From a virus, in the IMG/VR virus record IMGVR_UViG_3300036985_009306, positions 32,001 through 96,000 of that record: a stretch of 64,000 bases of DNA; one strand, 5' to 3'. This document shows positions 2,092 through 19,554 of this stretch, in pieces (the first letter of the stretch is position 1; every line of letters starts with the position of its first letter). A model generated the notes under the pieces. The model was not told the DNA's origin. It worked only from the letters and a program-made list of their open reading frames with translations, and did not search any database. The translations under genes and the position numbers were made by a program.

Positions 2092-3150
2092 ATGAATATG
2101 AAAATTACAGTAAGCATTCCATTTTATGCACAAGATAGTGGTGGAATAATGAGACAAACAACTTTAGCCAAAAAGCTTAATAAATTGTGGACTGTAGAAG
2201 TTCCTAAATATTTAACTACAAGTGGTGGTGTCAATCAAATGTATGATGTAGCATGCAATTTGAAAAAGAAATATGATGTTCATTTGAGAATTCAAACTTT
2301 GAACCCAAAGTTAGATTATTCAAAAATAGATTTTGAAGTACCATATAGTGTAGGGCTGACAGATTCTACATTTCCTGAGTCTGACATTGTAATAACTTAT
2401 TCAGACAATCCTTATACAGATATTTTAACCAGTCTTCCTCAGGTAAAAAAAGTTTTGATTTATATGTTAAGTTATGGTATGTGTCTTGAACGAGAAAGGA
2501 AAAATGTTTTAAATCCTAAAGTTACTGTAATGAGCAGCACTATTAGAACTCAGAGATTAATTGAAAAAGAGGGTGTTAAATGTCATTATGTAGGTTTTGG
2601 ATTAGACATGAATTTTTTTTATGAAAATCCATCTATTAAAAGAGAGAGATATGCAGCTCTTTTATATCATTATTCACTTGATAAACAGTATGAGTTGGGA
2701 GTAAAAGTATGTGATAATTTGTACGAGCAAAATTTAATTAATGGAACTATTACTTTTGGAACATCAAAAGAGTATACAAATTTTAAACATCCAAAGTTGT
2801 TAATTAAGAATTATCTTGATGCAACACATGAACAAGTGAGAGAAGTTTTTAACAAATGTAGTGTTTTTGTTATGCCTTCAAGAACTGAAGGATTAAATTT
2901 GACACCAATAGAGTCAACTCTATGTGGTTGTCCAGCTGTTATTTGTGATGGTGCAATAGGTGATGTGTTTCTTGATGGTAAAACATGTCTTATTGCAGAA
3001 AAAGATAATTTTTCAGATATTTTAGAGAAGACAAAAGAATTGTTATCTAATTCGACTTATTCTGTTGTTTTTAAAAATAATATTCAATCTTTATTATCAA
3101 AATTTACTTGGGGAAATACAATTTCTAATATAGAAAGAGTTTTAAAATGA
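2092..3150 (+). CDS. Glycosyltransferase family 4 (GT-B, WsaF-like)
   Basis: N-terminal SGGVNQM and C-terminal FVMPSRTEGLNLTPIESTLCGCPAV (E-X7-E motif). Confidence 0.85.
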   Translation: MNMKITVSIPFYAQDSGGIMRQTTLAKKLNKLWTVEVPKYLTTSGGVNQMYDVACNLKKKYDVHLRIQTLNPKLDYSKIDFEVPYSVGLTDSTFPESDIVITYSDNPYTDILTSLPQVKKVLIYMLSYGMCLERERKNVLNPKVTVMSSTIRTQRLIEKEGVKCHYVGFGLDMNFFYENPSIKRERYAALLYHYSLDKQYELGVKVCDNLYEQNLINGTITFGTSKEYTNFKHPKLLIKNYLDATHEQVREVFNKCSVFVMPSRTEGLNLTPIESTLCGCPAVICDGAIGDVFLDGKTCLIAEKDNFSDILEKTKELLSNSTYSVVFKNNIQSLLSKFTWGNTISNIERVLK

Positions 3151-4568
3151 TAGATTTTATAGATATAGGGTGCGGTACAGGGGGTTCAATAGAGTGGGCT
3201 AAAACTAAATTTGGTGGTTCTACTCATCTTGGTATAGATAATAGAGAGAAAGAAGTTAAGGAAGCTACAAAAAATGGGTATAATGTTACACTTGCTGATA
3301 TTACAAGTGAAGATGTAGTTTTGCCACAATGTCGATATATTACAATGTTGCACGTTCTTGAGCATTTGAAGAATGAGGAAGATGTTGAAAAAGTAATTAA
3401 AAAAGCTGTCAATGCTGCAAGTGAATTTGTTATTATAAGATCGCCTTCTTTTGATTCCATAGAATATCTACAATTATTAGGTTTTAGACTTACTTGGACA
3501 AATTGGATCGGTCATCCAACAGCAGTGACAACAGACATGTTAAAAATGATTACAGATAAATTAGGATTTAAAGCAGAAACAGGACATTTGATGCCTGTAT
3601 TAAATTCTGTTTCAAATGAAATAGTTCCTATTTCTTCTCCAGTAGATACTATTGTTTATGATCCTTCTGTTCTGGAAGCAAAAAAGTTTGTTGAATTTGT
3701 TGATGTCTATAGAGAAGTTTATTATATCATAAATATAGGAACATCATTTTTAAAACAAATTAAAGAATCACTTAATAATTCATCTTCAGAGTATTATTTA
3801 GCTCCAAAAACAACATATTTATCTGCAGAATATTATATTGATTTGATAAAAAACAACATACCATTTTCTTTTGCAAGATATGGTGATGGTGAACTGATAA
3901 TAATGTTTAATTATAAATCAGTCATAGGTAGAGACATAGGAGATATGATAAAGTCTATAGAACCTATGAAACAAATTTTTAGAAATCATTATGATTATTT
4001 TCATTGTAAATTAAATTGTACATTTCATACACATTCATTAAAATGTTTCGGGGTTGATATAGACGAAGTATGCAAGTTTATGATTGAGACTTGTCCAGAT
4101 ATGCCATTTTATGATGGTGAAATTTGGCAAGGGCTTTCTTTTAGTGGAAAAATAGAACAATTAACAAGAGAATTAAATTTATATACACCGGTATTCATAG
4201 GCGGTAAACATTTATCTAACATTCAGTATCTTAATGGAATAACTAATATGGAATTAATTACAGTACATGATAGAAAAGCATGGGATGATTTTGAAAATAT
4301 TAAACAACAGATACGACAAAAGATAGAATCTGGTAGAAGAATGTTTTGTTTTTCTATGGGATATGCAGGAAAAATAATGATCGATGAACTTTATTCAGAA
4401 ACTAGAGGCAAATGTTTTATGATAGATTTTGGAAGTTTATGGGATCCATATTGTGGTGTTCTTTCACGAAATGGAATGAGAAATGTTGGGTTTCAAAAAT
4501 TTCAATCTTTTACTAAATATAAATTACCATTATCTGTTTCACTTGAAGATTATTTTAGTAGAACATAA
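3147..4568 (+). CDS. Fusion of class I SAM methyltransferase and GT-D-fold (DUF1792-like) domain
   Basis: N-terminal FIDIGCGTG and HVLEH; C-terminal half starts PFSFARYGDGEL, a GT-D signature. Confidence 0.7.
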   Translation: MIDFIDIGCGTGGSIEWAKTKFGGSTHLGIDNREKEVKEATKNGYNVTLADITSEDVVLPQCRYITMLHVLEHLKNEEDVEKVIKKAVNAASEFVIIRSPSFDSIEYLQLLGFRLTWTNWIGHPTAVTTDMLKMITDKLGFKAETGHLMPVLNSVSNEIVPISSPVDTIVYDPSVLEAKKFVEFVDVYREVYYIINIGTSFLKQIKESLNNSSSEYYLAPKTTYLSAEYYIDLIKNNIPFSFARYGDGELIIMFNYKSVIGRDIGDMIKSIEPMKQIFRNHYDYFHCKLNCTFHTHSLKCFGVDIDEVCKFMIETCPDMPFYDGEIWQGLSFSGKIEQLTRELNLYTPVFIGGKHLSNIQYLNGITNMELITVHDRKAWDDFENIKQQIRQKIESGRRMFCFSMGYAGKIMIDELYSETRGKCFMIDFGSLWDPYCGVLSRNGMRNVGFQKFQSFTKYKLPLSVSLEDYFSRT

Positions 4569-4583
4569 AAGGAAAAAAAGTAA

Positions 4584-5210
4584 ATGGCGAATGGAGTTTA
4601 TAAAATAACAGAAGATTTTGAAGAAGCATTATCTAAATATACTTGTTCTCCTTATGTAGTTGTGCTTGATAATATGAGTAATGCTTTATTTCTTTCATTG
4701 TATTATGAGAATATAAGAGGAAAAACCATAACTATTCCTAATAGAACTTATCCATCTGTTCCTTGTGAAATTATACATGCAGGAGGGAAAGTTAATTTTA
4801 GACATGTAGAAGGAAAAACTTTAAAAGGAGCATATTCATTGGAAGGGTCTAAAACTTGGGATAGTGCATTAAGATTCACATACAATATGTACATTCCAAA
4901 AACATTTATGTGTATAAGTTTTACAGGTCCTTATAAACATTTGAAACTTAGCAAGGGAGGTGCAATATTGACTGATGATTATATTGCATATTTATGGTTT
5001 AAAAGAGCTAGATATTCTGGCAGAAGAGAATGTTCATACCATGATGATAACTTAGATATGTTAGGATGGAACTTTTATATGATGCCTGAATTAGCTGCAA
5101 GAGGGTTGTTATTAATGAATCAGTTTTACTTAGGTGAAACACCTAAAGTTAATGAAGATCTTGAATTGCCATATCCAGATTTGTCTAAATTTGTTATCTA
5201 TCAACAATAG
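4584..5210 (+). CDS. Short DegT/DnrJ/EryC1/StrS-family PLP aminotransferase-like protein
   Basis: FEEALSKY...NALFLSL, WDSA, SFTGPYKHL (Schiff-base Lys), GGAILTDD, GWNFYM..LAARGL. Confidence 0.75.
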   Translation: MANGVYKITEDFEEALSKYTCSPYVVVLDNMSNALFLSLYYENIRGKTITIPNRTYPSVPCEIIHAGGKVNFRHVEGKTLKGAYSLEGSKTWDSALRFTYNMYIPKTFMCISFTGPYKHLKLSKGGAILTDDYIAYLWFKRARYSGRRECSYHDDNLDMLGWNFYMMPELAARGLLLMNQFYLGETPKVNEDLELPYPDLSKFVIYQQ

Positions 5211-5213
5211 CAT

Positions 5214-6488
5214 ATGAAAAATGTTTTAGTATTTCCTTGTGGTTCTGAAATTGGACTTGAAGTAAATCGTGCATTAACTAATTCAACACATTTTACTTTA
5301 TTTGGAGGAAATAGTGTCAATGATCACGGAAAATATGTTTATAGAAATTATATTGCAGATCTTCCTGACATTGAAGAAAAAAATTTTATAGAAGAAATTA
5401 ACAGAGTTATAGATGAATTCAAGATTGATTTTATTATACCTTCTCATGATTCTGTAATCTTAAAAATGGCTCAAAACCAACAAAATATCAAAGCAACAAT
5501 AATTACGTCATGTGTAGAAACATGTGAAGTTTGTAGATCAAAAGCAAAGACTTATAAATTATTTGAAAAAAATATTGAAACACCCAAAGTTTATTCTTTA
5601 AAAGAAGAAATCAAATTTCCTGTTTTTTTAAAACCTGATGTGGGACAAGGAACAAAAGGGACATATAAAGCAAATAAAAAAGAAGAAATAGATTTTTATT
5701 TAAAGAAAGATTCTACATTACTTATATTAGAATATTTATCTGGGAAAGAATATACAGTTGATTGTTTTACTAATAAAAATGGAAGATTATTATTTGCTAC
5801 TGGAAGAGAAAGAATAAGAATTAATAATGGTATAAGTGTAAATTCTAAAGAATTATTTGATAATAGGTTTCAAGAAATTGCAACAATTATAAATAATACA
5901 TTGTCTTTTCAAGGTTCTTGGTTTTATCAAGTTAAAGAAAGATCTACTGATGAGCTTGTTTTAATGGAAATTGCTCCCAGAATTGCTGGAACATCTGCAT
6001 TATTTAGAGTAAAAGGAGTCAATTTTGTACAATTAAGTTTGTTTGATAAGATGGGTGTTGATGTAAGTATTTTATGCAATAATTTTGATGCTGAAATAGA
6101 TCGTGCTTTATTTTCAAGATTTTCTTCAAATGTTTGTTATGATTATGTGTATATAGATTTTGATGATACGATTATTGTAAATAATTTAGTGAATACTGAC
6201 ATTATGAAATTTCTTTATCAATCTAAAAATAATGGGAAAAAAATAGTTTTACTTTCAAAGCATAAACAAGACATCAAACAGAGTCTAAGTAATTTTTCAA
6301 TCAGTGATTTATTATTTGATGAAATAATCATTTTGAAGGATGATGAGAATAAATATGAACATATTACTGAATTAAGCTCTATATTCATTGATGATTCATT
6401 TTCTGAAAGAAAAACAATATACGACAAATTTCATATACCAGTTTTTGGATTAGATAGTATTGAATTTTTATTGCTTTGGAAAGTTTGA
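5214..6488 (+). CDS. ATP-grasp protein with C-terminal HAD-like domain
   Basis: FPVFLKPDVGQG, EYLSGKEYTVD, MEIAPRIAG; C-terminal YIDFDDTII and IFIDDS. Confidence 0.8.
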   Translation: MKNVLVFPCGSEIGLEVNRALTNSTHFTLFGGNSVNDHGKYVYRNYIADLPDIEEKNFIEEINRVIDEFKIDFIIPSHDSVILKMAQNQQNIKATIITSCVETCEVCRSKAKTYKLFEKNIETPKVYSLKEEIKFPVFLKPDVGQGTKGTYKANKKEEIDFYLKKDSTLLILEYLSGKEYTVDCFTNKNGRLLFATGRERIRINNGISVNSKELFDNRFQEIATIINNTLSFQGSWFYQVKERSTDELVLMEIAPRIAGTSALFRVKGVNFVQLSLFDKMGVDVSILCNNFDAEIDRALFSRFSSNVCYDYVYIDFDDTIIVNNLVNTDIMKFLYQSKNNGKKIVLLSKHKQDIKQSLSNFSISDLLFDEIIILKDDENKYEHITELSSIFIDDSFSERKTIYDKFHIPVFGLDSIEFLLLWKV

Positions 6489-6493
6489 TTTAA

Positions 6494-7489
6494 ATGCAAG
6501 ATAAAAAACAAAAAAAATTCTATAAAGAATTGAGCAATATTGTACCTGTAAATCCTAAATCAATAAATTTAGAGTTAACTAATAACTGTAATTTAAGATG
6601 TATTTTTTGTCTTAATTCTTTGCATAACTTCAGAAAAAAAGGATTCATGAGTGATGAAATTTTTTACAAATTAATTAATGAAGCATCTGAGGATACAACT
6701 ATAATTATATGTGGAATAGGAGAACCAACTTTACATAATAAGTTTGATGAATATGTTACAAAATTATCTGATAAATTTAAAAACATATTTTTAGTTACCA
6801 ATGGTCACTTTGAGAACAAAAGAATAAGAACAATATTGAACTCAAATATAACAAAAGTGACTTTTTCATTAGATTTTTTTGATAAAGATGCTTATTGTTC
6901 TAATAAAAATGGCAAAATTGATAAGGTGATAAAAAATATTGAATCTTTGTTAAAATTGCGGGGTTCAAGGAACATGCCGATTTTGCAGATAAATATGTTA
7001 ATGGAAAAAGGAAAAGAAAAACAAATCAAAGATTGTTTATTGTATTTTAATGCTATTTTGGGAAAAGATGATTTTGTTTATAGCAGAAATGTTAAATCAC
7101 TTTCTGAACAAATAAAAGTTGAAACAATTGATAATTATGAAGATTGGTTAAGTCTTGAGAAAATTAAAAAGATAATTTCTAAAGATGTCAATACAGATAA
7201 GTATTTTGTAGAAAATTGGTGTAATTTTTTAGGTTTAGAAGAACCATTATCATCTAGGCAAGTATGTAGACATCCTTTTATTTATGCTATGGTATTATAT
7301 GACGGAAGAGTTGTTTTTTGTTGTATTGATTTTAATGCAAAGATGATAGCGGGTGATTTAAAGTTTGAAAGTTTGCAAGAAATATGGAATGGGAAAAAAT
7401 ATAATAATTTTAGATCGGATATGATTAATTTTAGATTTGATGCTCACCCATTATGTATAAATTGTACCGAATGGTATAAACAAAAATAA
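6494..7489 (+). CDS. Radical SAM/SPASM-twitch domain protein
   Basis: CNLRCIFC (CxxxCxxC), GIGEPTLH, C-terminal CRHPF...DGRVVFCC...CINC. Confidence 0.9.
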   Translation: MQDKKQKKFYKELSNIVPVNPKSINLELTNNCNLRCIFCLNSLHNFRKKGFMSDEIFYKLINEASEDTTIIICGIGEPTLHNKFDEYVTKLSDKFKNIFLVTNGHFENKRIRTILNSNITKVTFSLDFFDKDAYCSNKNGKIDKVIKNIESLLKLRGSRNMPILQINMLMEKGKEKQIKDCLLYFNAILGKDDFVYSRNVKSLSEQIKVETIDNYEDWLSLEKIKKIISKDVNTDKYFVENWCNFLGLEEPLSSRQVCRHPFIYAMVLYDGRVVFCCIDFNAKMIAGDLKFESLQEIWNGKKYNNFRSDMINFRFDAHPLCINCTEWYKQK

Positions 7490-7509
7490 TTATAACAGAA
7501 GGAATAAAA

Positions 7510-8256
7510 ATGCTTTGTGATGAGAAAAAATTTCTTGATAGTATGTATTCTACTTATAGACTTAAAATGTCTTCACAAAATAGGATAATTAGAGAATTAG
7601 TAATAAAAAACATCATGCCATATATTGAGATTGATAAGTTTGTAGGTTTGCAATTGGGATGTGCAGATGGATATGAGACTAAATTACTTGCTAAATTATT
7701 GAAACAATTAGATGTTCTTGAGGGTTCAACAAAATTTATTAATGATGTCCGAAAAAAAAATATATCAAAAGTTGATTTAATTTATTCATTATTTGAAGAA
7801 TTTCAAACACCAAAAGATAAAAAATATGATATTGTTTTTGCAACATTTGTGCTTGAACATGTTTTTGATCCAACTTTGTTGTTAAAAAAAATAAGAAATG
7901 TTCTTAATGAAAATGGTCTGCTTTATATTGTTGTTCCAAATGCTAGAGCATTATCACGACAATTGGCTCTTCATATGGGAATTTTAAAAAATTTATATGA
8001 GTTAACTCCAAATGATTTAGGACATGGACACAGACGTGTTTTTGATCGTAATTCTCTGAATAAATTATTAGAATCATGTAATTTTCAGACAATTGCTCAA
8101 AGTGGAATTATGTTAAAAATACTAGCTGATTTTCAAATGGATAAGCTTATTGATTCTAATATTCTTAAATCTGAACATATAAATGGGTTATATTCTCTTG
8201 GTTTAGAGCATCCTGATCTTTGTGGTGCAATTTACAGTATTTGTAAAAATGTTTGA
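7510..8256 (+). CDS. Class I SAM-dependent methyltransferase
   Basis: LQLGCADG, YDIVFATFVLEHVFDP, GLLYIVVPNA. Confidence 0.85.
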   Translation: MLCDEKKFLDSMYSTYRLKMSSQNRIIRELVIKNIMPYIEIDKFVGLQLGCADGYETKLLAKLLKQLDVLEGSTKFINDVRKKNISKVDLIYSLFEEFQTPKDKKYDIVFATFVLEHVFDPTLLLKKIRNVLNENGLLYIVVPNARALSRQLALHMGILKNLYELTPNDLGHGHRRVFDRNSLNKLLESCNFQTIAQSGIMLKILADFQMDKLIDSNILKSEHINGLYSLGLEHPDLCGAIYSICKNV

Positions 8257-9179
8257 ACTTTTTAAATTTTCTTGTCATGAGAGAAAAGCAAATGATAACA
8301 TTTAGTAATTTAGGAGCTTTTGGAAGATTAGGTAATCAATTGTTTCAATATGCGATATTATTATCAGTTGGTGCAGAAAATGATTATGAAGTAAAAATAC
8401 CGAAACTTGATGATAAAGAATGGCATGGACAAAAGTGTTTATTAAAAAATTTTAATATCAAAGCAAAGACATTAGATTGTAATGACGTAATAAAATATTT
8501 TTATAATGAATTAGAACGTTCAAAAGGTCTATATGATCCAACAGTAGGTCTATATGATCCAACAGTTTTTAATGTCCCTGACAATTCAGATTTATTTGGA
8601 TATTTTGGTGATTATCGATATTTAAAAAAACATGAAGATTTGATAATAAATGAGATGTCCCTTAAAGAGAATATTTTAGAAAAAAATAGAAAAAGGTTTT
8701 TTGAAATAAAACAAAAATATGCTGATTGTTTAATAATTTCACTTCATATAAGACGTGGTGATACTGCTTTAGATATGTATAGTAAAAAAGAAACTCTTGA
8801 AATACTTGACATTAATTCTCCTTGGCAAATATATTTCTCTAATGCAAGGAAGATGTTTGACAATAAAAAATGTAAATTTTTAGTTTTTACAGGAGGATCA
8901 CATTCTAACAATAATGAGCTTGATTATATATGGTGCAAGAGAAATTTGAAAGGTGATGAATTTATTTATTGTGATGATAATATTGATAATCCGATAGATG
9001 ATTTTGCTATGATGTACCTTTGTGACGCACATATTTTATCTGCATCATCAACATTAAGTTGGTGGGTTGGGTTTTTAGACAAAAAAAATGATAAGATTAC
9101 TATTGCACCTGAAAAATATTGGTTTTTAACAAAAGCAATGCATGAAGGATTTTATCCTGATAATTTTATTTTAGTATAA
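8253..9179 (+). CDS. Alpha-1,2-fucosyltransferase-like protein (GT11); the start may be the ATG at 8292
   Basis: GRLGNQLFQYA, LHIRRGD, STLSWWVGFL are GT11 motifs. Confidence 0.85.
   Translation: MNFLNFLVMREKQMITFSNLGAFGRLGNQLFQYAILLSVGAENDYEVKIPKLDDKEWHGQKCLLKNFNIKAKTLDCNDVIKYFYNELERSKGLYDPTVGLYDPTVFNVPDNSDLFGYFGDYRYLKKHEDLIINEMSLKENILEKNRKRFFEIKQKYADCLIISLHIRRGDTALDMYSKKETLEILDINSPWQIYFSNARKMFDNKKCKFLVFTGGSHSNNNELDYIWCKRNLKGDEFIYCDDNIDNPIDDFAMMYLCDAHILSASSTLSWWVGFLDKKNDKITIAPEKYWFLTKAMHEGFYPDNFILV
8525..8566 (+). repeat. Exact 21-bp tandem duplication (AGGTCTATATGATCCAACAGT x2) in the GT11 gene
   Basis: Read directly; encodes GLYDPTV-GLYDPTV in frame. Confidence 0.95.
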
Positions 9180-9182
9180 ATT

Positions 9183-9854
9183 ATGAAATTAGAAGACATA
9201 AGAATACATTGTATAGGAGATAGTCATGTTTCAGTTTTTACAGGAAAAGATACAATAAGCAAAGGTTGGCCTTGTCCACAAGATTCAATACAATATTTTC
9301 ATACTTATTGGCTTGGACCAGTATTAGCATATAATCTTTATTCTGTTGGACATCAATCAAGGTTGAATTTGTTTAATGTTTTAGAAAGTATTTCTAAAAG
9401 TGATTATGTGATGCTTTGTGCAGGAGAAATTGATTGTAGGATGCATTTGATTAGACAAAAAGAATTACAAAACAAATCATTAGAAGAAATTGTACAAGAA
9501 TGTGTATGTAGATATTTTCAAGTGATTTTAGAAATAAAAAATATGGGATTTAAAGTGATAATATGGGGAGTACCAGGTACAGCAAATATTGATTGTTTTG
9601 AATTAAAAGATAAAAATACTTTTCCTCATTATGGCACGTATAAGGAAAGAAATCAGGCTACAAAAATTTTTAATAACAAAATAGAATATTTATGTAAATT
9701 AAATGATGTTTTATTTTTATCTATTTTTGATGATCTAATTGATGACAATGGAAAAACTAAAATAACAGAATATTATATGGATGAGTTTCATGTAAGTCAG
9801 AAAGTAATGCCTTTGATAATTAGTAAACTTAAAAATGTTTTAAACAAAGAATGA
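9183..9854 (+). CDS. SGNH/GDSL hydrolase-family protein (acetylesterase/acyltransferase-like)
   Basis: IGDSHV block I, GEIDCR, and DEFHVS catalytic D-x-x-H. Confidence 0.75.
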   Translation: MKLEDIRIHCIGDSHVSVFTGKDTISKGWPCPQDSIQYFHTYWLGPVLAYNLYSVGHQSRLNLFNVLESISKSDYVMLCAGEIDCRMHLIRQKELQNKSLEEIVQECVCRYFQVILEIKNMGFKVIIWGVPGTANIDCFELKDKNTFPHYGTYKERNQATKIFNNKIEYLCKLNDVLFLSIFDDLIDDNGKTKITEYYMDEFHVSQKVMPLIISKLKNVLNKE

Positions 9855-10564
9855 GATGTTTTATGAATAAAGAACAATATGAAAATCAATTTATACTTTT
9901 TAAAGAGAAATCTAAATTGGATGAAAGATTTGTTGTTGAAGAAACAAATAAATACATGATATTGAATGAAGACACTTACAAGTGTTCATATGATCAACAT
10001 TACATATATCATACTGCTTGGGCTGCACGTAGAATTTGTGAAAATAAACCCAAAAAACATGTAGATATTTCATCTTCTATTTATTTTTCAACTATTGTTT
10101 CTGCTTTTGTACCTGTAGATTTTTTTGATTATCGTCCTGTTGAACTTGATTTAGAAAACTACAATTCTGGAAAAGCTGATTTGACATGTTTACCTCATTC
10201 TGATAATAGTATACAGTCTTTATCTTGTATGCATGTTTTAGAGCATATTGGTTTAGGAAGATATGGAGATGCAATAGATCCTTTAGGAGATATTGTTGCT
10301 GCAAATGAATTAAAAAGAGTATTGGCTCCTGGAGGAATTCTTTATATGGTTTTACCAGTAGCATCAATAAATAAGATATGTTTTAATGCTCATAGAATTT
10401 ATTCTTTTAAAAGCGTACTTTCTCTTTTTAATGGATTGGTTTTAAAAAGTAATACTTTACTTTCATTATTTTCTAATAAAAGTGCTTTTATAAAAAATGC
10501 TTCAGAAAATGACTATAACCAACAAACTTATGGTTGTGGTTGTTTTGAGTTTCAAAAAATATAG
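9851..10564 (+). CDS. DUF268-family methyltransferase-like protein
   Basis: YDQHYIYHTAWAARRI, HVDISS, SCMHVLEHIGLGRYGD..DP.GD. Confidence 0.75.
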   Translation: MRCFMNKEQYENQFILFKEKSKLDERFVVEETNKYMILNEDTYKCSYDQHYIYHTAWAARRICENKPKKHVDISSSIYFSTIVSAFVPVDFFDYRPVELDLENYNSGKADLTCLPHSDNSIQSLSCMHVLEHIGLGRYGDAIDPLGDIVAANELKRVLAPGGILYMVLPVASINKICFNAHRIYSFKSVLSLFNGLVLKSNTLLSLFSNKSAFIKNASENDYNQQTYGCGCFEFQKI

Positions 10565-10575
10565 AAAAATTTGTT

Positions 10576-11085
10576 ATGCCTGCAACTATAGAAACTTATT
10601 GTATAGCATATGAATTTTCAACTAAATCCACTTTTCTTGAATTGGGTGGATTTTTAGGTGATGGAATATTGAAAGCACTTAATGTAGGTTTTAAAAATGT
10701 GATTTCTGTAGAATTATCAGAAGATTTATGTATGTTTTTAAAAAAAAGGTTTGTAAGTGATAAAAAAGTTATGATTGTACAAGGGGATGTTGAAAATGTA
10801 TTACCCGACATAATTAAAGACTTGAATGAACCATGTGCTATTATGTTAGATGCGCATTATAGTGGAAATGGTACAGTACGAGGTATTCATGATGACCCCA
10901 TAATTGAAGAACTTAGCATAATTGGTAGTAGTAAATTTAAAAATCATGTTTTAATGATAGATGATATGAGACTTCTTAATGATGAACAAATAAGAAAAAA
11001 AGTGCTTGAAATAAATCAAAATTATACTTTTATGTATGCTGAAGGTCACGTGAAAGATGATGTTCTCATCTGTTACATGAAATAA
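10576..11085 (+). CDS. Small methyltransferase-fold protein
   Basis: FLELGGFLGDG, ISVEL, MLDAHYSG, LMIDDMR. Confidence 0.6.
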   Translation: MPATIETYCIAYEFSTKSTFLELGGFLGDGILKALNVGFKNVISVELSEDLCMFLKKRFVSDKKVMIVQGDVENVLPDIIKDLNEPCAIMLDAHYSGNGTVRGIHDDPIIEELSIIGSSKFKNHVLMIDDMRLLNDEQIRKKVLEINQNYTFMYAEGHVKDDVLICYMK

Positions 11086-11089
11086 TAAA

Positions 11090-14000
11090 ATGAATATATC
11101 TATTGTAATCCCAGTTCATAATCAATGTCAATTGTTGCAAAATTGCATAAACTCTATTTTTGAAAAAACAAATACTGAGTTTCAAATTATTATTGTAAAT
11201 GATGGTTCTGATGAACAAACAACGAAATTTTGTCATCAACTTTATGAAACAAAGAAAATCAAGAAACTAGTTCATAATCCTGTTGCAAAAGGATTTAGTG
11301 AAAGTTGCAATCAAGGAATTGTTGCAAGTCAAGATTCTGATTATATTTGTCTTTTAAATTCTGACACAAAAATAGTCACAAAAAATTGGTTAGAAAAAGT
11401 GATTTTATGTGGAGAAAGTGATGAAAAAATAGGATGTCTTGGAGTATTATCTAATTGTGCAACTTGGCAATCTATAGGTAAAAACTTTGTCAAAGAAAGT
11501 GAAATACAAAAATATGGTGATTTGATCGTTTCTCTTTCAGAAAATCAATATCCCAGAACTAATTTGATTAATGGATTTTGTTTTTTTATTAAAACTAATG
11601 TTCAAAAACAAGTTGGACTTTTAGATGTTCAAGTTTTCCCTCATTATGGAAGTGAAGATGATTTTGCTTTAAGAATTAGACAAAAAGGATATGAGCTGGC
11701 AATTGTTGATAATGTCTATGTCTATCACTATTCTAATCAGTCTTATAAAGAAAAAAGAGAAAAAATAATGCATTATTCTTTGCCCAATTTATTAAAGAAA
11801 TGGGGAAACAAAAGAATAGTTCAAGATACAAATGTGTCAAATAATTCATTAAATTATTTAAAAAAGAAAATCAATGAATATTTTTCTTCTATGTCTTGTG
11901 ACATTATTATTGTTGTTCATAATGCTTTATCATATCTTAAAAAATGTATAGAAAGTATTCAAAAATACACTGATTATGAGCATAATATCTTTATTGTAGA
12001 TAATAACTCAAATGAAGAAACTAAATCTTATTTAAAAAGTCTTAAACATGTTCAAATTATTTCAAATAAGAAAAACTATGGTTTTGGTTATTCTAACAAT
12101 CAAGCAATAAGAAAATCAAAATCTAAATATGTATGTTTTTTAAACAGTGATACGATAGTTACGAAGAACTGGTTGACAAATTTGATTGAGTGTTTAGAAA
12201 AAAATAATGCAGGAATTGTAGGTCCAATTTCAAATGAAGTATCATCTGAACTACAAAAGGTAGATTATCTTTATGATGATAATGATGAAAATATTCAAGA
12301 TTTTGCAGAAAAAAGATACTTACAATATAAAGACAAAGTTGCAGAGTATAACAGACTTATTGGCTTTTGCATGGTCATGAAGAGAGAAGTCTTACAGAAG
12401 ACAGGATGTTTTGATGATAGATATAGATTTAATTTTGAAGATGATGATTTATGTTTAAGAACTGTAGAACAGGGATATAGACTTTATTGTTCATTTGGTG
12501 TATTTATATATCATTATGCAGGACAATCATTTAAAGAAAAATCAATAAACGTAGACTATAATAATATGCTTGAAACTAGTAGAGACTTATACAAAAAGAA
12601 ATGGTATGAAACTCAAAAAATAAAGTTTATTAATGAAAAAAAAGATAATATTTCAATAATCTATCTTTTAGAGTCAAATTCACCAAGTGGTGGAGTTAAA
12701 GTTGTTTTTGAACATGCAAATAGACTTAAAGATAGAGGTTATAATGTAAAGATATATTGTAGAAGAAATGAAACAGGAACAAATTGGTTTGATTTATATA
12801 CACCTATTGTCTATTTTTCTGAACCTCAAGAAGTTCCTCATTGTGACATTGCAATAGGTACCTATTTTACTACACTTCCTATTCTCCAAAAGATTAATAG
12901 TTCTATTAAAATTCATCTTTGTCAAGGATATGAAGCTTCTCTTTATGACAAAGTCAAAGAAAAAATGTTAATTTCTACTATACAAGATAATTATAAAAGT
13001 ATTAAAGAAAAAATAGTAGTCTCTAAATGGTTAAAAGAAATAATTGATAAAGAATACAAAATAGATTCTTATTATGTACCAAATGGTCTTGATCAATATG
13101 TGTTTTCATTTTCAAAACATCAAAGAAATAGAACACCGAGAATTCTTATTGTAGGAAATTATGGGCTTCAAATTAAAGGAGTAGCAATAGCTTTAAAAGC
13201 TGCAGAAGAATATTTAAAAGCTCATTCTCGTAATGAACCAATAATGCATCGTCAAGTTTATACAGCAATAAAAATTGTTAATAAAAAAGTTCAAGGAACG
13301 ATTGTAAGACTTGCATCTGAAAAAACTCAATTTGATGATAAATGTGAATTTCATGATATGTCAAAGATGACACAAGATGAGATTGCTAAAGTTTATGAAT
13401 CTTGTGATGTAACTCTTTGTGCCTCTTATAAAGTTGAAGGTTTTAGTTTACCACCTTTAGAATCTATGGCTAGTGGAACTCCTGTAATAACAACAGACTG
13501 TGGGGGTATAAATGATTATGCAATAAATAATGAAAATTCAATTATTGTACCTCCTGGTGATGTAAAAGCATTACAACAAGGTCTTGAGATGGTATTATCT
13601 AATAACGAGTTGTATTCTCGTTTGGTAGAGAATGGTTTAAAAACAGCCAATGAATATCCATGGTATAAACAAATAGATATACTTGAGGGATTTCTGCATA
13701 GGCTCTATTATAAACAAATTGCTCTGAGTAGAGAACAGCTGTCTGTATGTATGATTGTAAAGAATGAGCAATTGTGTTTAGCAAATTGTTTGGAATCTAT
13801 TAAGGGTCTTGCAAACGAAATAATAATTGTAGATACTGGTTCTACGGATGACACTATAAGAATAGCTAAAAGTTTTGGAGCAAAAATTTTTCATTTTGAG
13901 TGGATTGATGATTTCTCTGCTGCTAGAAATTTTGCTCTAGAAAAAGTGACTCAGTCTTGGACTTTTATTCTGGATGCTGATGAAGTAATAAGTCCAGTAG

Positions 14001-14962
14001 ATATATCAAAAATAAGAAATTTATTGAAACAAAATAAAGCTTATAGTTTTGTTTCTAGAAATTATGTTAATTCTACAAATATTGAAGATGTAGTTTGTTG
14101 TAAAGGTGAATACAAAAATGAAGAGAAAGATTTTGTTGGATGGTGTAGATCAGGTAAAGTTAGATTATTTCCTACGACAAAAGGTGCAAAGTTTAATGGG
14201 CAAATACATGAGCTAGTAGAAGATTCATTAGAAGAATTAAATATTAAAATTGAGATGTGTGATATTCCAGTTCATCATTATGGTTATCTTAAACAAAATA
14301 AAGAAAAAGGTGAGATATATTTAAAGTTGGGGAAGAATAAAGCAAAAGTTGGCGATAAGAAAGCACTTTATGAATTAGCATCGCAATATATGGCACTTAA
14401 TAATTATGATGAATCACTTGTTGTTTGGAGAAGATTGTTGTCAATAGAACCTAAAAATTATGATTATTTGTCACATATAGGAACTGTATTTAACTTGTTA
14501 AATGATTATGATCAAGCAGAGAAATATTTTCTTAAGTCTATTTCTATATGTCAATCTGAATATGCTTTTAAGCATTTAGCGATTTGTTATTCAAAATTAG
14601 ATAGATATAATGATGCATATTTAACGTTTAAAAAGATTGTTTATAAGACTGATGATTTGAAAACAATGGCAGATTTTGCATATTGTTGTAATACATTAAA
14701 GAAATATGACGAAGCGATTTCTATTTTAGAAAAATGTTTGAAAATTAATAGAGAAATAACTGTGTCTTGGGGGCTGTTAGAATCAGCTTATAATGAGAAG
14801 GGAATAGAGTTTGCAAGTGCAAATAACCTTAATCAAGCATTGGTGATGTTCAAAAAAGCTTTAGATTTAGATTGTAGATTTGAAGCAGCTCAAACAAATC
14901 TAAATGTGGTCAATAAACTTTTAAGTACTGGGTCATTTTCTAAAAGTTTTATCAAAGTTTAA
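11090..14962 (+). CDS. Multidomain glycosyltransferase GT2-GT2-GT4-GT2-TPR
   Basis: Two SIVIPVHN/DIIIVVHN...LNSDT GT2 units; SGGVKVVFEHANRL...EGFSLPPLESMASG GT4; LSVCMIVKNE...VDTGSTD...LDADE GT2; C-terminal TPR-like helical repeats. Confidence 0.9.
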   Translation: MNISIVIPVHNQCQLLQNCINSIFEKTNTEFQIIIVNDGSDEQTTKFCHQLYETKKIKKLVHNPVAKGFSESCNQGIVASQDSDYICLLNSDTKIVTKNWLEKVILCGESDEKIGCLGVLSNCATWQSIGKNFVKESEIQKYGDLIVSLSENQYPRTNLINGFCFFIKTNVQKQVGLLDVQVFPHYGSEDDFALRIRQKGYELAIVDNVYVYHYSNQSYKEKREKIMHYSLPNLLKKWGNKRIVQDTNVSNNSLNYLKKKINEYFSSMSCDIIIVVHNALSYLKKCIESIQKYTDYEHNIFIVDNNSNEETKSYLKSLKHVQIISNKKNYGFGYSNNQAIRKSKSKYVCFLNSDTIVTKNWLTNLIECLEKNNAGIVGPISNEVSSELQKVDYLYDDNDENIQDFAEKRYLQYKDKVAEYNRLIGFCMVMKREVLQKTGCFDDRYRFNFEDDDLCLRTVEQGYRLYCSFGVFIYHYAGQSFKEKSINVDYNNMLETSRDLYKKKWYETQKIKFINEKKDNISIIYLLESNSPSGGVKVVFEHANRLKDRGYNVKIYCRRNETGTNWFDLYTPIVYFSEPQEVPHCDIAIGTYFTTLPILQKINSSIKIHLCQGYEASLYDKVKEKMLISTIQDNYKSIKEKIVVSKWLKEIIDKEYKIDSYYVPNGLDQYVFSFSKHQRNRTPRILIVGNYGLQIKGVAIALKAAEEYLKAHSRNEPIMHRQVYTAIKIVNKKVQGTIVRLASEKTQFDDKCEFHDMSKMTQDEIAKVYESCDVTLCASYKVEGFSLPPLESMASGTPVITTDCGGINDYAINNENSIIVPPGDVKALQQGLEMVLSNNELYSRLVENGLKTANEYPWYKQIDILEGFLHRLYYKQIALSREQLSVCMIVKNEQLCLANCLESIKGLANEIIIVDTGSTDDTIRIAKSFGAKIFHFEWIDDFSAARNFALEKVTQSWTFILDADEVISPVDISKIRNLLKQNKAYSFVSRNYVNSTNIEDVVCCKGEYKNEEKDFVGWCRSGKVRLFPTTKGAKFNGQIHELVEDSLEELNIKIEMCDIPVHHYGYLKQNKEKGEIYLKLGKNKAKVGDKKALYELASQYMALNNYDESLVVWRRLLSIEPKNYDYLSHIGTVFNLLNDYDQAEKYFLKSISICQSEYAFKHLAICYSKLDRYNDAYLTFKKIVYKTDDLKTMADFAYCCNTLKKYDEAISILEKCLKINREITVSWGLLESAYNEKGIEFASANNLNQALVMFKKALDLDCRFEAAQTNLNVVNKLLSTGSFSKSFIKV

Positions 14963-14967
14963 AGAAT

Positions 14968-15348
14968 GTGAGACAAATACCCAAAAATATAAAAGGAAGA
15001 GTAAAAAATTTTTTTGATACATATTTAAAGAGTTTAGCTATTTCAGGAGATGAGAATATTAAAACTGAATTAGCAAAACGAGGCCAAGAAGCCGAAGTTG
15101 AACATTCTATAGGAAAAAATGAAATAGTTTTTACTGTAAAACCAAAGATAGAGAAACTAGAGACAAAAAAGGTTCCAAAAAAGGAAGCTGCAAAGTTTAA
15201 AAAGGTATTAGGTCCTGTACCATTAGAAATGTTAAATCAAGAAATGAGTGATCAAGAGATTTCTGAAGTAGCTGTCGACGAAGCTATGCAGATTACTCAG
15301 GATGATTCATTTAATAAATTTAATGAATTAATAGAAAAAATGTATTAA
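14968..15348 (+). CDS. Hypothetical protein
   Basis: 126-aa ORF with GTG start, tightly packed. Confidence 0.55.
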   Translation: MRQIPKNIKGRVKNFFDTYLKSLAISGDENIKTELAKRGQEAEVEHSIGKNEIVFTVKPKIEKLETKKVPKKEAAKFKKVLGPVPLEMLNQEMSDQEISEVAVDEAMQITQDDSFNKFNELIEKMY

Positions 15349-15357
15349 TTAAAAGTT

Positions 15358-15981
15358 ATGTGCATTTGGGTAAGGAAAAAAATGAAAAATTTTCAACAAA
15401 CTTTGATGAGAACAATGTGGAAACCTCAAAAAAGATCTGGTATAAGTATGGTAATTAGAGGAAAAATTCTAAATGTAGTTCAATTAATAGACATAAATAG
15501 AACAGTACAATGTGGACAGGAAATAAGTCTTGATGAGTTTGAAGTTAACAGATCAAGAGACTTACAGAATGCTATTAAAAGAGATTGGGTGGAAGTAATA
15601 TTTGATAAATATAAACAAATAGAAAATAGACATGGAACTGAAGATGTTGTTGGTATTGCAAAAAAAATGGCTCAATCAATGGCTGAAGAGATGATAAAGA
15701 ATAGTCCTTTGGTAAAAGAGATAGCAAAAGAAGTTGCAAAAGAAATGTTGTCGGGAATACAAGATAGCTTAAAAGCGCATCCTCAACAAATTGTAATTCA
15801 ACAGGTAGGAGAAAAGAAGATAGATCTTAAGGATTCTGATAACGTTTTTGTAGAATTTAAAGATGAAGAAGTTGGAATGACTTCAAATATAAAAGAGATA
15901 GGAAAAGTTGAGATACAGAAAGATGATCTTACGAGTTCATTAGAGAAAATGAAGAAATTTAGACAAAATCAAAAAGGGTAA
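15358..15981 (+). CDS. Hypothetical protein with helical C-terminus (true start possibly 15448)
   Basis: ORF track; MAQSMAEEMIK...AKEVAKEML helical stretch. Confidence 0.55.
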   Translation: MCIWVRKKMKNFQQTLMRTMWKPQKRSGISMVIRGKILNVVQLIDINRTVQCGQEISLDEFEVNRSRDLQNAIKRDWVEVIFDKYKQIENRHGTEDVVGIAKKMAQSMAEEMIKNSPLVKEIAKEVAKEMLSGIQDSLKAHPQQIVIQQVGEKKIDLKDSDNVFVEFKDEEVGMTSNIKEIGKVEIQKDDLTSSLEKMKKFRQNQKG

Positions 15982-16201: not shown

Positions 16202-17266
16202 ATGAATATTAATGTAGATGAAAACAAAACAGATTTAAGTGAGCAATTGATTTCAAGAAAAAAATCTGAGATCAAAAGACAACCCGGAGTAGGGTTAGAT
16301 TGTGGTACAATGTTTACTGTTAGTGCAAGTTATTATAATGGTAATACATCATTCGCAAGTGAAAGAAATGCATTTTTTGATATTGAAAATAGTTCAATTT
16401 CAAAAAGTATGTTATCAAAATTAAAAGCAAATTTTGTAGAATCATCTGATAAAAAAAGTTTGTATGTTATTGGTAATGAAGCTCTATTTATTGCAGACTT
16501 TTTTAACAAGGATTGCAGACGTCCTTTTTCAAAAGGCGTTCTTTCAACTAGAGAAACAGAAGCTATTTTTATTATAAAGATGATTTTAAAAAATTTGGTT
16601 AGAGAACCAGTTGTTGAAAACGAAAAACTATTCTTTTCTGTTCCAGCTGATCCTATAGATGCTGATTTTAATAATATCTATCATCAAAACATTATAAAGT
16701 CGTTTTTGATGTCTTTTGGGTATAACCCTCAACCAATGAATGAAGCATTTGCAATTATATGGTCAGAATTAGAAGATGAGAAATATTCTGGGATGGCTTT
16801 GTCATTTGGTGCAGGTAGTGTAAATATTGCTCTTTCTCTTTATGGAATATCAAATAGTAATCAACAATTTTGTCTTGCAAGGTCAGGAGATTATATAGAT
16901 TCGAATGCAGCGCAAGCATTGGGTGTTAAAACATCTAGAATAACAACAATAAAGGAAGCAGGTTTAGATCTTTTGAATCCTAAGAATAGAGAAGAAACAG
17001 CAATAAAAATTTATTATGAAAATTTAATATCATATACTTGTAATGCAATAGAAAAAAAATTTAATAATACACAAGATGTACCTAATTTTAAAGAACCTAT
17101 ATCTATTGTAATTAGTGGTGGAACATCAAAAGCAAACAATTTTGATAAGTTGTTTGAACAAGAAATAAAGAGTAAGAGTTTGCCATTTTCTATAAAGCAA
17201 GTAAAAAAGGCTTCAGATCCTTTGAATGTTGTTGCTAAAGGTTGTTTATTGAATGCATTGGAATGA
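16202..17266 (+). CDS. Actin-fold ATPase (ParM/MreB/MamK superfamily)
   Basis: Phosphate-1 GLDCGTMF, FSVPAD, connect-1 MNEAFAII, phosphate-2 SFGAGSVN, adenosine VISGGTS, connect-2 DPLNVVAKGC. Confidence 0.85.
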   Translation: MNINVDENKTDLSEQLISRKKSEIKRQPGVGLDCGTMFTVSASYYNGNTSFASERNAFFDIENSSISKSMLSKLKANFVESSDKKSLYVIGNEALFIADFFNKDCRRPFSKGVLSTRETEAIFIIKMILKNLVREPVVENEKLFFSVPADPIDADFNNIYHQNIIKSFLMSFGYNPQPMNEAFAIIWSELEDEKYSGMALSFGAGSVNIALSLYGISNSNQQFCLARSGDYIDSNAAQALGVKTSRITTIKEAGLDLLNPKNREETAIKIYYENLISYTCNAIEKKFNNTQDVPNFKEPISIVISGGTSKANNFDKLFEQEIKSKSLPFSIKQVKKASDPLNVVAKGCLLNALE

Positions 17267-18330: not shown

Positions 18331-19554
18331 ATCTATTTTATTGTTTCAAACGGGCTCAAGAAGAGGCTTGTTTTAATCTTTCAGGATATTTTGTCTAAAC
18401 ATCCTATTTTTGAGAAAGCAAAAGTTTATACTAAGTTTCCAACAGATGAACGTCCTAAGTATGCAATAATAATTCGTTCATCTTCAGGAATGGCTCAAAA
18501 GTTAAGTCTTGACAACTTTATTGCTACTCATAGAGGATTTTGTGCTCTAGCAAATCTTAAGGATGTTCCAGGAAATTCAATCGAATGGGTGCGAGATGAT
18601 CAGAGTAACCTGGATAACCTTTCGGCCCCAGGTTACTATATAGTAAAAATAACTGGTCACGATCCATCTACTAATTTATTCCAATTTACAATAGATCCCT
18701 ATCTTATAATTAATGATGAACCATTGTCTATCCAAACAATAAGTGGTAAAGATGGAGGAATTCTAAAAAATTTACCTGTTAATCCTAATTCTGAGTTTGT
18801 GTTTTCAGAAAGTAATAGATTCCAGTTCAAAAGAGATATAGAATATACAATTGATTATACTACAGGTCAAATTTTGTTTAACGATCTTGTAACTGATTTT
18901 ACACCAATTGTTGTTGATTATCAATCACTTTGTCCTCAAATGGGACCATTTACTACAGAATATTATAAACTTCATAACGATGCTCTTCCGGGTGTGATTC
19001 TAGCTTTTGGTGACAGACTTAAAGTAAATGATGAACAAGTTGTTGTTGTCACAAAAGAAGACAAAGATATTGCTAAAGTTTTTGGTGGACGTTGGGTAAT
19101 GGATTTTGAAATCATTGGGTTAGCACAGGACCCTGATCAACAAGAAAGACTTGTAGATTATGTAGTAACATCATTGTGGGCGGAATATCAGGATGCTTTG
19201 ACAAATGAAGGAATTGTAATTAGAGATTTTACTCTTTCAGGAGAAGCTGAGGATTTAGAAGTAGAAATACCTGAAGAATATAATTTTACTGGTGGTATAA
19301 GTTTTTCAATGGAAGCTGATTGGGAAGTTTATGTGCCAACTATTTCTGAAGTTCGTAGAATTAATGTTTCTTATGGTAAAGAAAGTTTTAAAGAGGAATT
19401 AGATTATCCGACGGAAGTCAAATATGAAGAGACGCAATTTGATGAAAGAATGTTAAATTCCGGTCATCAATTAGGATTACAAGTAGTACCCTCTCTTGAT
19501 GCATATATTGTACATCCAAGTCCATTTCCGAGAGTTTCTCCAAGAAAATACTAA
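18331..19554 (+). CDS. Putative tail terminator/tail-completion protein with inserted beta domain (track start 18391; frame open from ATC 18331)
   Basis: FPTDERPKYAIIIRSSSG and acidic C-terminal EAEDL...EEYNF...SFSMEADWEVYVP resemble tail-terminator proteins; lies upstream of fibre and sheath. Confidence 0.5.
   Translation: MYFIVSNGLKKRLVLIFQDILSKHPIFEKAKVYTKFPTDERPKYAIIIRSSSGMAQKLSLDNFIATHRGFCALANLKDVPGNSIEWVRDDQSNLDNLSAPGYYIVKITGHDPSTNLFQFTIDPYLIINDEPLSIQTISGKDGGILKNLPVNPNSEFVFSESNRFQFKRDIEYTIDYTTGQILFNDLVTDFTPIVVDYQSLCPQMGPFTTEYYKLHNDALPGVILAFGDRLKVNDEQVVVVTKEDKDIAKVFGGRWVMDFEIIGLAQDPDQQERLVDYVVTSLWAEYQDALTNEGIVIRDFTLSGEAEDLEVEIPEEYNFTGGISFSMEADWEVYVPTISEVRRINVSYGKESFKEELDYPTEVKYEETQFDERMLNSGHQLGLQVVPSLDAYIVHPSPFPRVSPRKY

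Follow-up and report, generated by a model that had tools for sequence, protein, structure and literature searches.

A TPR-linked multi-domain glycosyltransferase kept with the tail genes of a sediment phage and its possible role in virion protein glycosylation

The stretch analysed here (the window, 64,000 nt) comprises bases 32001-96000 of a 192,143-bp IMG/VR virus record (IMGVR_UViG_3300036985_009306) from an uncultured sediment phage, with an estimated completeness of 97%. At 2092-14962 it carries a 13-kb sugar island of 11 consecutive + strand open reading frames (ORFs) spaced by -4 to +20 nt; the ORF listing thus bears out the 11 contiguous, co-oriented genes reported in a preliminary description of the window. 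The last gene encodes a 1290-aa protein in which four glycosyltransferase (GT) domains are followed by tetratricopeptide repeats (TPRs). We propose that the island glycosylates virion proteins step by step in the cytoplasm, with a tailoring branch that varies and no lipid carrier, as part of the neck/tail morphogenesis module. We give this reading a probability of about 0.5.

The core enzyme (11090-14962, + strand) has the order GT2-GT2-GT4-GT2-TPR and matches Glycos_transf_2 in three stretches (1.4e-68) and Glycos_transf_1 (2.6e-23). The TPRs occupy residues 1087-1270, directly after the last GT2 domain (TPR_1 3.5e-16, TPR_12 1.4e-12, TPR_2 7.4e-11). When this GT2 domain (residues 869-1073) is compared with the PDB, protein and peptide glycosyltransferases rank at the top, namely GmaR (8e-26), SunS (8.4e-14) and a ThuS-type enzyme (2.5e-12), and no polysaccharide GT2 stands above them. 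The catalytic motifs are intact: DADE (DxD) at residue 962 and EGF (GT4 signature) at residue 783 are invariant across 14 homologues. The last GT2-TPR module is, from these similarities, likely a protein-directed initiating enzyme. The first GT2 domain matches GalT1 (2.6e-8).

Two flagellin-modifying systems resemble this module. GmaR, the Listeria flagellin O-GlcNAc transferase, consists of a GT followed by TPRs that were proposed to recognise flagellin (PMC9638930). The TPRs of FlmG, the Caulobacter flagellin pseudaminyl transferase, bind flagellins and are needed for efficient glycosylation, which is cytoplasmic and stepwise (PMC7591256). The module of the core enzyme has the same order, GT2 then TPR, and both known enzymes act in the cytoplasm on the subunits of a large polymer before assembly. 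Here, however, the module stands behind three extra GT domains, is encoded by a phage among its tail genes and lacks an antirepressor domain, and its acceptor is probably a virion protein rather than flagellin. The glycocin S-glycosyltransferases SunS and ThuS (SPbeta prophage yolJ) are similar in their GT2 domain, with an NCBIfam SunS model match of 1.6e-18 in addition to the PDB matches, in having a helical-repeat C-terminal substrate-binding part, and in phage context: a tblastn search of 50,697 phage records with the core enzyme matched 83, SPbeta among them and mycobacteriophages absent. In contrast to the glycocin loci, the neighbourhood has no gene for a Cys-rich precursor peptide, a thiol-disulfide oxidoreductase or an exporter.

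The position of the island provides a second line of evidence. Structural genes were assigned with PHROG and Pfam and by reference to Tunturiibacter phage Tunturi_5, an annotated phage that is the closest cultured relative, its sheath being 32% identical:

Genome 26105-27004: head-tail connector homologue (Tunturi_5 homology).
Ending at window position 657: minor-tail homologue of 921 aa (Tunturi_5 homology).
18391-19554, + strand: tail terminator homologue, closing the slot on the downstream side (Tunturi_5 tail terminator as tblastn query, 3.9e-11).
19629-23531, + strand: tail fibre (PHROG 8.9e-17).
24358-27087, + strand: tail sheath (PHROG 1.3e-28).
27180-27788, + strand: tail tube (matches Tunturi_5 gp329, 1.8e-35).

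Because homology to Tunturi_5 places the connector and minor tail before the island and the terminator, sheath and tube after it, the island lies between neck and tail genes, as the preliminary description had it. Baseplate wedge and baseplate J genes are also found downstream (PHROG, Pfam). From minor tail to terminator, the order is a Hoc-like immunoglobulin (Ig)-domain gene, a 114-aa gene, the island, two small genes, a Volactin-family actin gene and two more small genes. The + strand carries almost all genes of the genome. Since promoter and terminator scans gave results at chance level, with no terminator-like site above chance inside the island, we take operon structure from gene packing only. 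A terminator-like hairpin is located at 18348-18373, just 5' of the tail terminator gene.

To follow the island among relatives, we used four related huge phages in IMG/VR, with flanking proteins 29-78% identical and a GC content of 31-64%. Identities to the present phage are:

L014 (IMGVR_UViG_3300029288_006769, 424,144 bp, 98% complete): GT-TPR protein 59%, minor tail 58%, terminator 66%, actin 72%, connector 78%.
L003/L004 (211 kb): GT-TPR protein 61%, minor tail 66% (C-terminal part only), terminator 65%, actin 60%.
L015 (58 kb): GT-TPR protein 52%, minor tail 48%, terminator 55%, actin 58%.
L020 (GC 64%): GT-TPR protein (GT2-TPR) 33%, minor tail 33%, terminator 29%, actin 40%, sheath 37%.

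All four encode a multi-GT-TPR protein in the interval from minor tail to actin and terminator, with full-length homologues in L003, L014 and L015, and its divergence tracks that of its structural neighbours. The preliminary description had asked whether the island stays next to head and neck genes in related huge phages; the GT-TPR core does keep the neck/tail slot and co-diverges with the structural genes. The separate GT4 at the start of the island (2092-3150) is 59-62% identical in L003 and L014 and, by this measure, belongs to the core that the low-GC relatives conserve. The tailoring cassette between them (3147-11085) is replaced or missing in all four, and the radical SAM (S-adenosylmethionine) and ATP-grasp-HAD genes were not found in the records of any of them. 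In L003, the first GT2 domain forms its own GT2+TPR protein, and a GT32 gene, a GT2+GT-D-like protein, a methyltransferase and a kinase-like gene stand in place of the cassette. Searches with the tail terminator or the minor-tail protein as single query found no loci, and a two-sequence alignment re-found the same relatives. Many further GT-TPR homologues are 55-68% identical, some of them on other long contigs; genomic context was examined for those present in IMG/VR. Two L014 proteins (P0007 and P0016) are labelled 'Candidatus Nanoarchaeia archaeon' metagenome-assembled genome in NCBI, and L014 is probably a huge phage binned into that archaeal assembly.

The ten genes before the core enzyme are as follows:

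2092-3150, + strand: GT4 glycosyltransferase (PF00534, Glycos_transf_1, 7.7e-11; PF13692 4.5e-12).
3147-4568, + strand: fusion of an N-terminal SAM methyltransferase (Methyltransf_25, Methyltransf_11) and a C-terminal GT-D-like glycosyltransferase (RYGDGE at residue 244).
4584-5210, + strand: mini-DegT, a truncated sugar aminotransferase-like protein of 208 aa (PF01041 2.4e-9).
5214-6488, + strand: ATP-grasp ligase (ATPgrasp_Ter 3.9e-15, NF009405 2.1e-33) with a HAD-type phosphatase-like tail (HAD from the motif DFDDT at residue 315 only).
6494-7489, + strand: radical SAM protein with a SPASM/twitch auxiliary-cluster domain (PF04055 1e-15, PF13186 5e-16).
7510-8256, + strand: SAM-dependent class I methyltransferase (Methyltransf_23 3.6e-17).
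8253-9179, + strand: GT11 (alpha-1,2-fucosyltransferase family) glycosyltransferase (PF01531 5.1e-14; HIRRGD at residue 165).
9183-9854, + strand: SGNH-like esterase or acyltransferase (GDSH at residue 12, DEFH at residue 200; Atlas fold with a template modelling (TM) score of 0.82 to an SGNH cluster).
9851-10564, + strand: DUF268 methyltransferase-like protein (PF03269 5.7e-15).
10576-11085, + strand: small putative methyltransferase (RrnaAD 2.4e-4, sub-threshold; glycine-rich SAM-type motif LELGGFLGDG).

Pfam, NCBIfam and PDB sequence searches agree with the gene labels given earlier, except that GT-D, HAD, SGNH and the last methyltransferase are labelled from motifs or weak matches only. 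The GT-D-like half of 3147-4568 has no Pfam match at E 0.01 or better; in pairwise comparison it reaches E 0.027 to a relative's PF22882-positive protein and E 0.002 to the GT-D-like gene of L014, and the predicted-structure neighbours of the fusion in the Atlas are GT-D clusters (TM 0.57-0.66). The GT-D assignment is weak. In L014 the two halves are separate adjacent genes, a methyltransferase (57% identical) followed by the GT-D-like gene. The SGNH-like protein has no Pfam match and no PDB sequence match; its fold occurs in fusion with TPRs in bacteria and with GT8 or GT32 in giant viruses (Nucleocytoviricota).

The motifs SFTGPYK (K118) and WDSA (D93) of mini-DegT align with the SF..K and DAA motifs of a 382-aa aminotransferase. 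Compared with the canonical DegT fold, ~44 internal and ~106 C-terminal residues are missing (~150 in total) and the pyridoxal phosphate lysine is retained; at only 208 aa the protein falls short of the full two-domain DegT/DnrJ/EryC1 fold of ~360-400 aa. It has 7,831 homologues, of which the best 120 are all ~80% identical and ~209 aa long, and the family occurs on at least 588 IMG/VR contigs with a GC content of 26-42%, including loci L026-L105 and L024:15001-15645. A homologue 75% identical is encoded by the cultured Flavobacterium phage immuto. As judged from sequence, this is a distinct, very conserved mini family, for which we found no sign of prior characterisation. A PglD-like hexapeptide N-acetyltransferase follows mini-DegT in 62 of 80 other phage loci, and a WbqC-like protein follows it in 15 of the 80; by analogy, the pairing of mini-DegT with a PglD-like enzyme is the amino-sugar logic of bacillosamine-type pathways. 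In the present island, the ATP-grasp-HAD fusion occupies the position of the PglD-like N-acetyltransferase. The top PDB match of the radical SAM protein is BtrN, a sugar dehydrogenase with one auxiliary cluster (6.4e-13), and the peptide maturase SkfB follows at 5.9e-6. Its CX3CX2C motif (residues 32/36/39) and auxiliary Cys residues (258, 276/277, 321 and 324) show the BtrN-type pattern. The BtrN match, the neighbour pattern of mini-DegT and the position of ATP-grasp-HAD together suggest a branch that oxidises, aminates and N-acylates a sugar.

These same genes could instead serve a soluble product, a glycocin-like peptide or an aminoglycoside-like small molecule, in place of virion decoration. 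The SunS/ThuS similarity of the last GT2 domain would fit a peptide, as would the radical SAM-SPASM and ATP-grasp enzymes, which are common as peptide maturases, and the BtrN/DegT-family/ATP-grasp trio recalls butirosin enzymes. BtrN, BtrS and BtrJ of the butirosin pathway may parallel the radical SAM, mini-DegT and ATP-grasp proteins. Yet gaps of <=20 nt leave no room for a precursor peptide inside the island, small proteins neighbouring it have no Cys pattern, and there is neither a transporter nor a protease. All four relatives keep the GT-TPR core yet lack the radical SAM and ATP-grasp genes, and seven GT domains far exceed the need of such a product. We give it a very slim chance.

Under virion protein glycosylation, the island could work as follows; acceptor, sugars, step order and the virion location of the product are all inferred here. 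Late in infection, the TPR array of the 1290-aa enzyme would hold a phage structural protein, and the adjacent GmaR/SunS-like GT2 would attach the first sugar to an acceptor side chain. The Hoc-like protein encoded just upstream, a candidate surface decoration, is a candidate acceptor, as are the fibre, sheath and tube. The remaining GT2 and GT4 domains and the separate GT4, GT-D-like and GT11 enzymes would extend the chain from nucleotide sugars. The variable cassette would then decorate the sugars: three to four methyltransferases may O- or N-methylate them, and the SGNH enzyme may add or remove O-acyl groups. In a putative oxygen-independent three-gene branch, a hydroxyl would become an acylated amine, with the BtrN-like radical SAM enzyme producing a keto sugar, mini-DegT transaminating it and ATP-grasp-HAD ligating an acid onto the amine. 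An RmlB-like 4,6-dehydratase (213 bits, genome 103181-104083) could supply a 6-deoxy-4-keto sugar. No nucleotidyltransferase was found in the genome. An RmlD-like short-chain dehydrogenase/reductase (SDR; genome 185313-186371) adjoins a uracil-DNA glycosylase (UDG) gene and may belong to another pathway.

The main rival is remodelling of host glycans. Here the enzymes would act on lipid-linked O-antigen, capsule or teichoic-acid intermediates, or on flagellin, pilin or S-layer glycoproteins, and would alter the cell surface so that, for example, superinfection is blocked or progeny are kept off debris. GT4, GT2, GT11 and GT9-like families are typical of lipopolysaccharide and capsule loci, PHROG labels a related upstream multi-GT2 protein 'GtrB-like O-antigen conversion', and large GT sets of a cyanomyovirus are read in this way in the literature (PMC12801897). 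The natural acceptor of GmaR is itself a host-type protein, flagellin (PMC9638930). A simple Kyte-Doolittle hydropathy scan of + strand ORFs of at least 60 aa (- strand ORFs were filtered from the output) is at odds with this explanation. Hydrophobic 19-mers above 1.5 and transmembrane-like segments are absent from all island proteins, and the scan found no flippase-, Wzx/Wzy polymerase-, Gtr- or phosphoglycosyl-transferase-like polytopic membrane protein in the 97%-complete genome, with at most four marginal hydrophobic segments per ORF. The core enzyme is co-inherited with neck and tail genes over a GC range of 31-64%, and thus presumably in very different hosts, which is difficult to square with a role specific to one host's glycans, and the island sits within a tightly packed string of late structural genes. 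We regard host-envelope remodelling as unlikely.

Alternatively, the glycan could be placed on a modified base of the phage genome as a protection against restriction, as in T-even and 5-hydroxymethylcytosine systems. Hypermodified DNA carrying multi-sugar glycans is indeed made by phage GT-A and GT-B enzymes (bioRxiv 10.1101/2023.12.21.572611). The genome also encodes a divergent ThyX-like protein (genome 174838-175836, 332 aa, PF02511 1.2e-13) in which the canonical RHR...S motif is missing; a family-4 UDG and an SDR are encoded in the same nucleotide-metabolism region. Against DNA glycosylation, the genome holds no candidate for a thymidylate-synthase fold (PF00303) even at E 10, with positive controls working, and no C5 DNA methylase (PF00145). 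A TET/JBP search (PF12851) gave no match, its control being silent too. No GT2 or GT4 match lies near the nucleotide-metabolism region, both GT clusters being more than 125 kb away, whereas the genes of published DNA-glycan pathways are usually clustered; TPR-coupled GmaR/SunS-like enzymes, moreover, are protein- or peptide-directed. DNA glycosylation has a slim chance.

Several observations weigh against glycosylation of the virion by the island. The core enzyme scores 66.8 bits with the SunS equivalog model (TIGR04195), below the 350-bit cut-off, and is therefore a SunS relative, not an equivalog. Two structure models are unusable, that of 3147-4568 (single sequence; predicted local distance difference test (pLDDT) 36.9) and that of mini-DegT (22-sequence alignment; pLDDT 47.3). 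Lipid-linked host intermediates at the inner membrane face are substrates of soluble GT2 and GT4 enzymes too, so that the missing export genes are compatible with hijacked host pathways. The virion-glycosylating genes of Che8-type mycobacteriophages lie near the 3' genome end, outside the structural operon (PMC11256854), so that linkage to structural genes is neither necessary for such a function nor proof of it. In immuto, mini-DegT belongs to a sugar cluster among lysis and unknown genes, outside the structural module, which also speaks for host-envelope remodelling. The preliminary description had counted islands unlinked to structural genes as evidence against its reading; for the tailoring part immuto touches on this point, and the GT-TPR core stays linked in four relatives. 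The structural proteins that it called very Ser/Thr-rich do contain 19-25% Ser+Thr, against a genome median of 11%, but have no mucin-like tracts and are ordinary for fibre proteins. Ser/Thr richness was rejected as a pointer to acceptors because it does not discriminate. GTs are absent from the same tail module in two distant relatives, Tunturi_5 and LR745208 (a 485-kb phage of GC 55%, at a similar distance), the latter having the minor tail, actin, terminator and sheath. Their absence implies that the function is dispensable for assembly. As judged from these comparisons, the core enzyme is a long-standing, vertically inherited, dispensable member of the tail module. The virion glycan coat suggested by the preliminary description is thus partly supported: synteny, the GmaR/SunS-like module, the predicted solubility of the enzymes and the search for known hydroxymethyl-pyrimidine routes, in which none was detected, speak for it, the Ser/Thr argument is weak and the acceptors are candidates only.

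Other known systems share parts of this arrangement. As cited in PMC11256854 and PMC12619734, the mycobacteriophages Che8 and Rita modify capsid and tail-tube proteins with their own GTs, shown by mass spectrometry (Freeman et al., 2023). The idea of phage enzymes glycosylating their own virion proteins is the same as the one proposed here, but the present phage has ~16 GT domains and places a tailoring cassette inside the neck/tail module, and its core enzyme had no tblastn match in mycobacteriophages. In the streptococcal serine-rich-repeat adhesin system (GtfA/B, Gtf3, dGT1 with GT-D/DUF1792, GalT1), soluble GT4, GT-D and GT2 enzymes likewise carry out stepwise cytoplasmic O-glycosylation; the GalT1 match of the first GT2 (2.6e-8) and the weakly assigned GT-D-like domain recall it. 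Unlike in that system, no SecA2/Y2 export genes and no serine-rich-repeat substrate were found here. The fibril glycan clusters of Megavirinae comprise 6-33 genes of clade-specific content, with decoration of the particle surface as conserved purpose (PMC10117803). Giant viruses, including chloroviruses with their multi-domain GTs, share with the present phage clusters of nucleotide-sugar enzymes, aminotransferases, methyltransferases and multi-domain GTs, and the SGNH-like fold of 9183-9854 is GT-fused in Nucleocytoviricota. They differ in their eukaryotic hosts and structural proteins, and the core here is GmaR-like and putatively TPR-guided.

The cyanomyovirus S-SCSM2R, a ~200-kb lytic myovirus, also has many GTs as well as sugar epimerases, and a DegT-like gene 30% identical to mini-DegT. 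However, its genes are dispersed and read as host cell-wall or DNA modification, and no TPR-coupled tail-module enzyme is reported there (PMC12801897). Its 13 GTs were called possibly a record for a marine phage in that 2025 paper (PMC12801897). An earlier statement that the island is far more elaborate than described phage systems thus holds against the mycobacteriophages and less clearly against this cyanomyovirus (PMC12801897).

The genome of the present phage has ~16 GT domains in 9 genes and ~7 methyltransferase domains. A second, 10-kb GT cluster of five genes lies before the window (genome 3050-12744). Besides a 1265-aa protein that joins four GT2 domains to a methyltransferase, it encodes a GT17, two fusions (GT2_5-FkbM and FkbM-GT2) and a GT2 whose GT9-like part is weak. 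All 9 GT2 and 2 GT4 matches of a genome-wide Pfam search fall into the two clusters (3-12.7 kb and 34-47 kb), which flank the connector/minor-tail region. The relatives G001 and G002 have only weak counterparts of the second cluster, ~30 kb from their islands.

The genes next to the island are partly conserved as well:

660-830, + strand: decayed, frame-shifted GT32 (Gly_transf_sug) relic in three reading frames (tblastn with the intact L003 gene).
901-1629, + strand: Hoc-like Ig-domain protein with an S/T/N-rich linker (PHROG Hoc-like head decoration/tail protein, 1.9e-12 to 5.9e-11).
1631-1975, + strand: conserved 114-aa protein preceding the island (30-47% identical in L003, L014 and L015).
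14968-15981, + strand: two conserved small genes (126 aa and 207 aa) after the GT-TPR gene (33-52% identical in L003, L014 and L015).
16202-17266, + strand: Volactin-family actin-fold protein (PF25216 1.9e-72).

The intact GT32 gene is L003:6054-6701 (PF04488 2.1e-13). The relic matches MIPKILHQIW and RYKQTWLNLHPEWE in two frames, the joint E being 1e-6 with the fragment as target and 0.01 with the genome. With this relic on one side and the GT4 at 2092 on the other, the Hoc-like and 114-aa genes are bracketed by GT DNA. The Hoc-like gene is kept upstream of the island in L003 and L014 (42-45% identity), and in every relative the slot just upstream of the island holds variable Ig-like or repeat surface proteins. 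In L003 (341-5128) and L015 (3504-7724), the interval from the minor-tail gene to the island holds one or two large proteins of 326-1033 aa and 18-20% Ser+Thr, built of repeated units ending in Ig-like 'APS..QV.AG.N..G' segments; they have no counterpart in the present phage or in L014, and resemble exchangeable surface decoration. The 126-aa and 207-aa genes have no family match in Pfam or PHROG.

The Volactin-family actin is 38-72% identical in L003, L014, L015, L020 and L025 (L014:15076-16152; L020:12354-13502; L025:13251-14294). It stands directly before the tail terminator in every relative examined, the GC-rich ones and one without GTs included, and from this distribution appears to be a core gene of the tail module. 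The Tunturi_5 major head protein as query gave no match in the genome, and capsid, portal and terminase were not located. A 322-aa protein (genome 16328-17296) was considered as capsid and rejected, the pairwise comparison being negative and no PDB match being found. This protein has the highest Ser+Thr content in the genome (24.5%), and its repeats by eye resemble leucine-rich repeats of the BspA type.

What is new here is a putatively TPR-guided multi-glycosyltransferase inherited with the tail module and joined to a swappable cassette; self-glycosylation by phages and viruses is itself already known. To our knowledge, no virus has been described that combines a BtrN-like radical SAM enzyme with a 209-aa mini aminotransferase and an ATP-grasp-HAD ligase. 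A wider and more tentative proposal, which we hold with less than even confidence, is that the tail-module TPR-guided multi-domain GT has been inherited across hosts of GC ~30-64%, that tailoring cassettes are swapped like those of bacterial O-antigen loci and may thereby set a virion 'serotype', and that the cassette seen here would add oxygen-independent amination and acylation. The island would offer compact multi-domain GTs and a TPR-targeted module predicted to act in the cytoplasm without lipid carriers, which makes it attractive for glyco-engineering, and it holds a member of a very widespread 209-aa aminotransferase-like family. As far as we know, phage particles were long held to be unglycosylated, the proven cases being a few mycobacteriophages only. 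Glycans on mycobacteriophage virions change antibody recognition. If huge environmental phages are routinely glycan-coated by an enzyme inherited with the tail, glycan coats would be a general layer of phage surface biology, with possible effects on adsorption, stability in sediment, escape from recognition by hosts or grazers, and competition between related phages.

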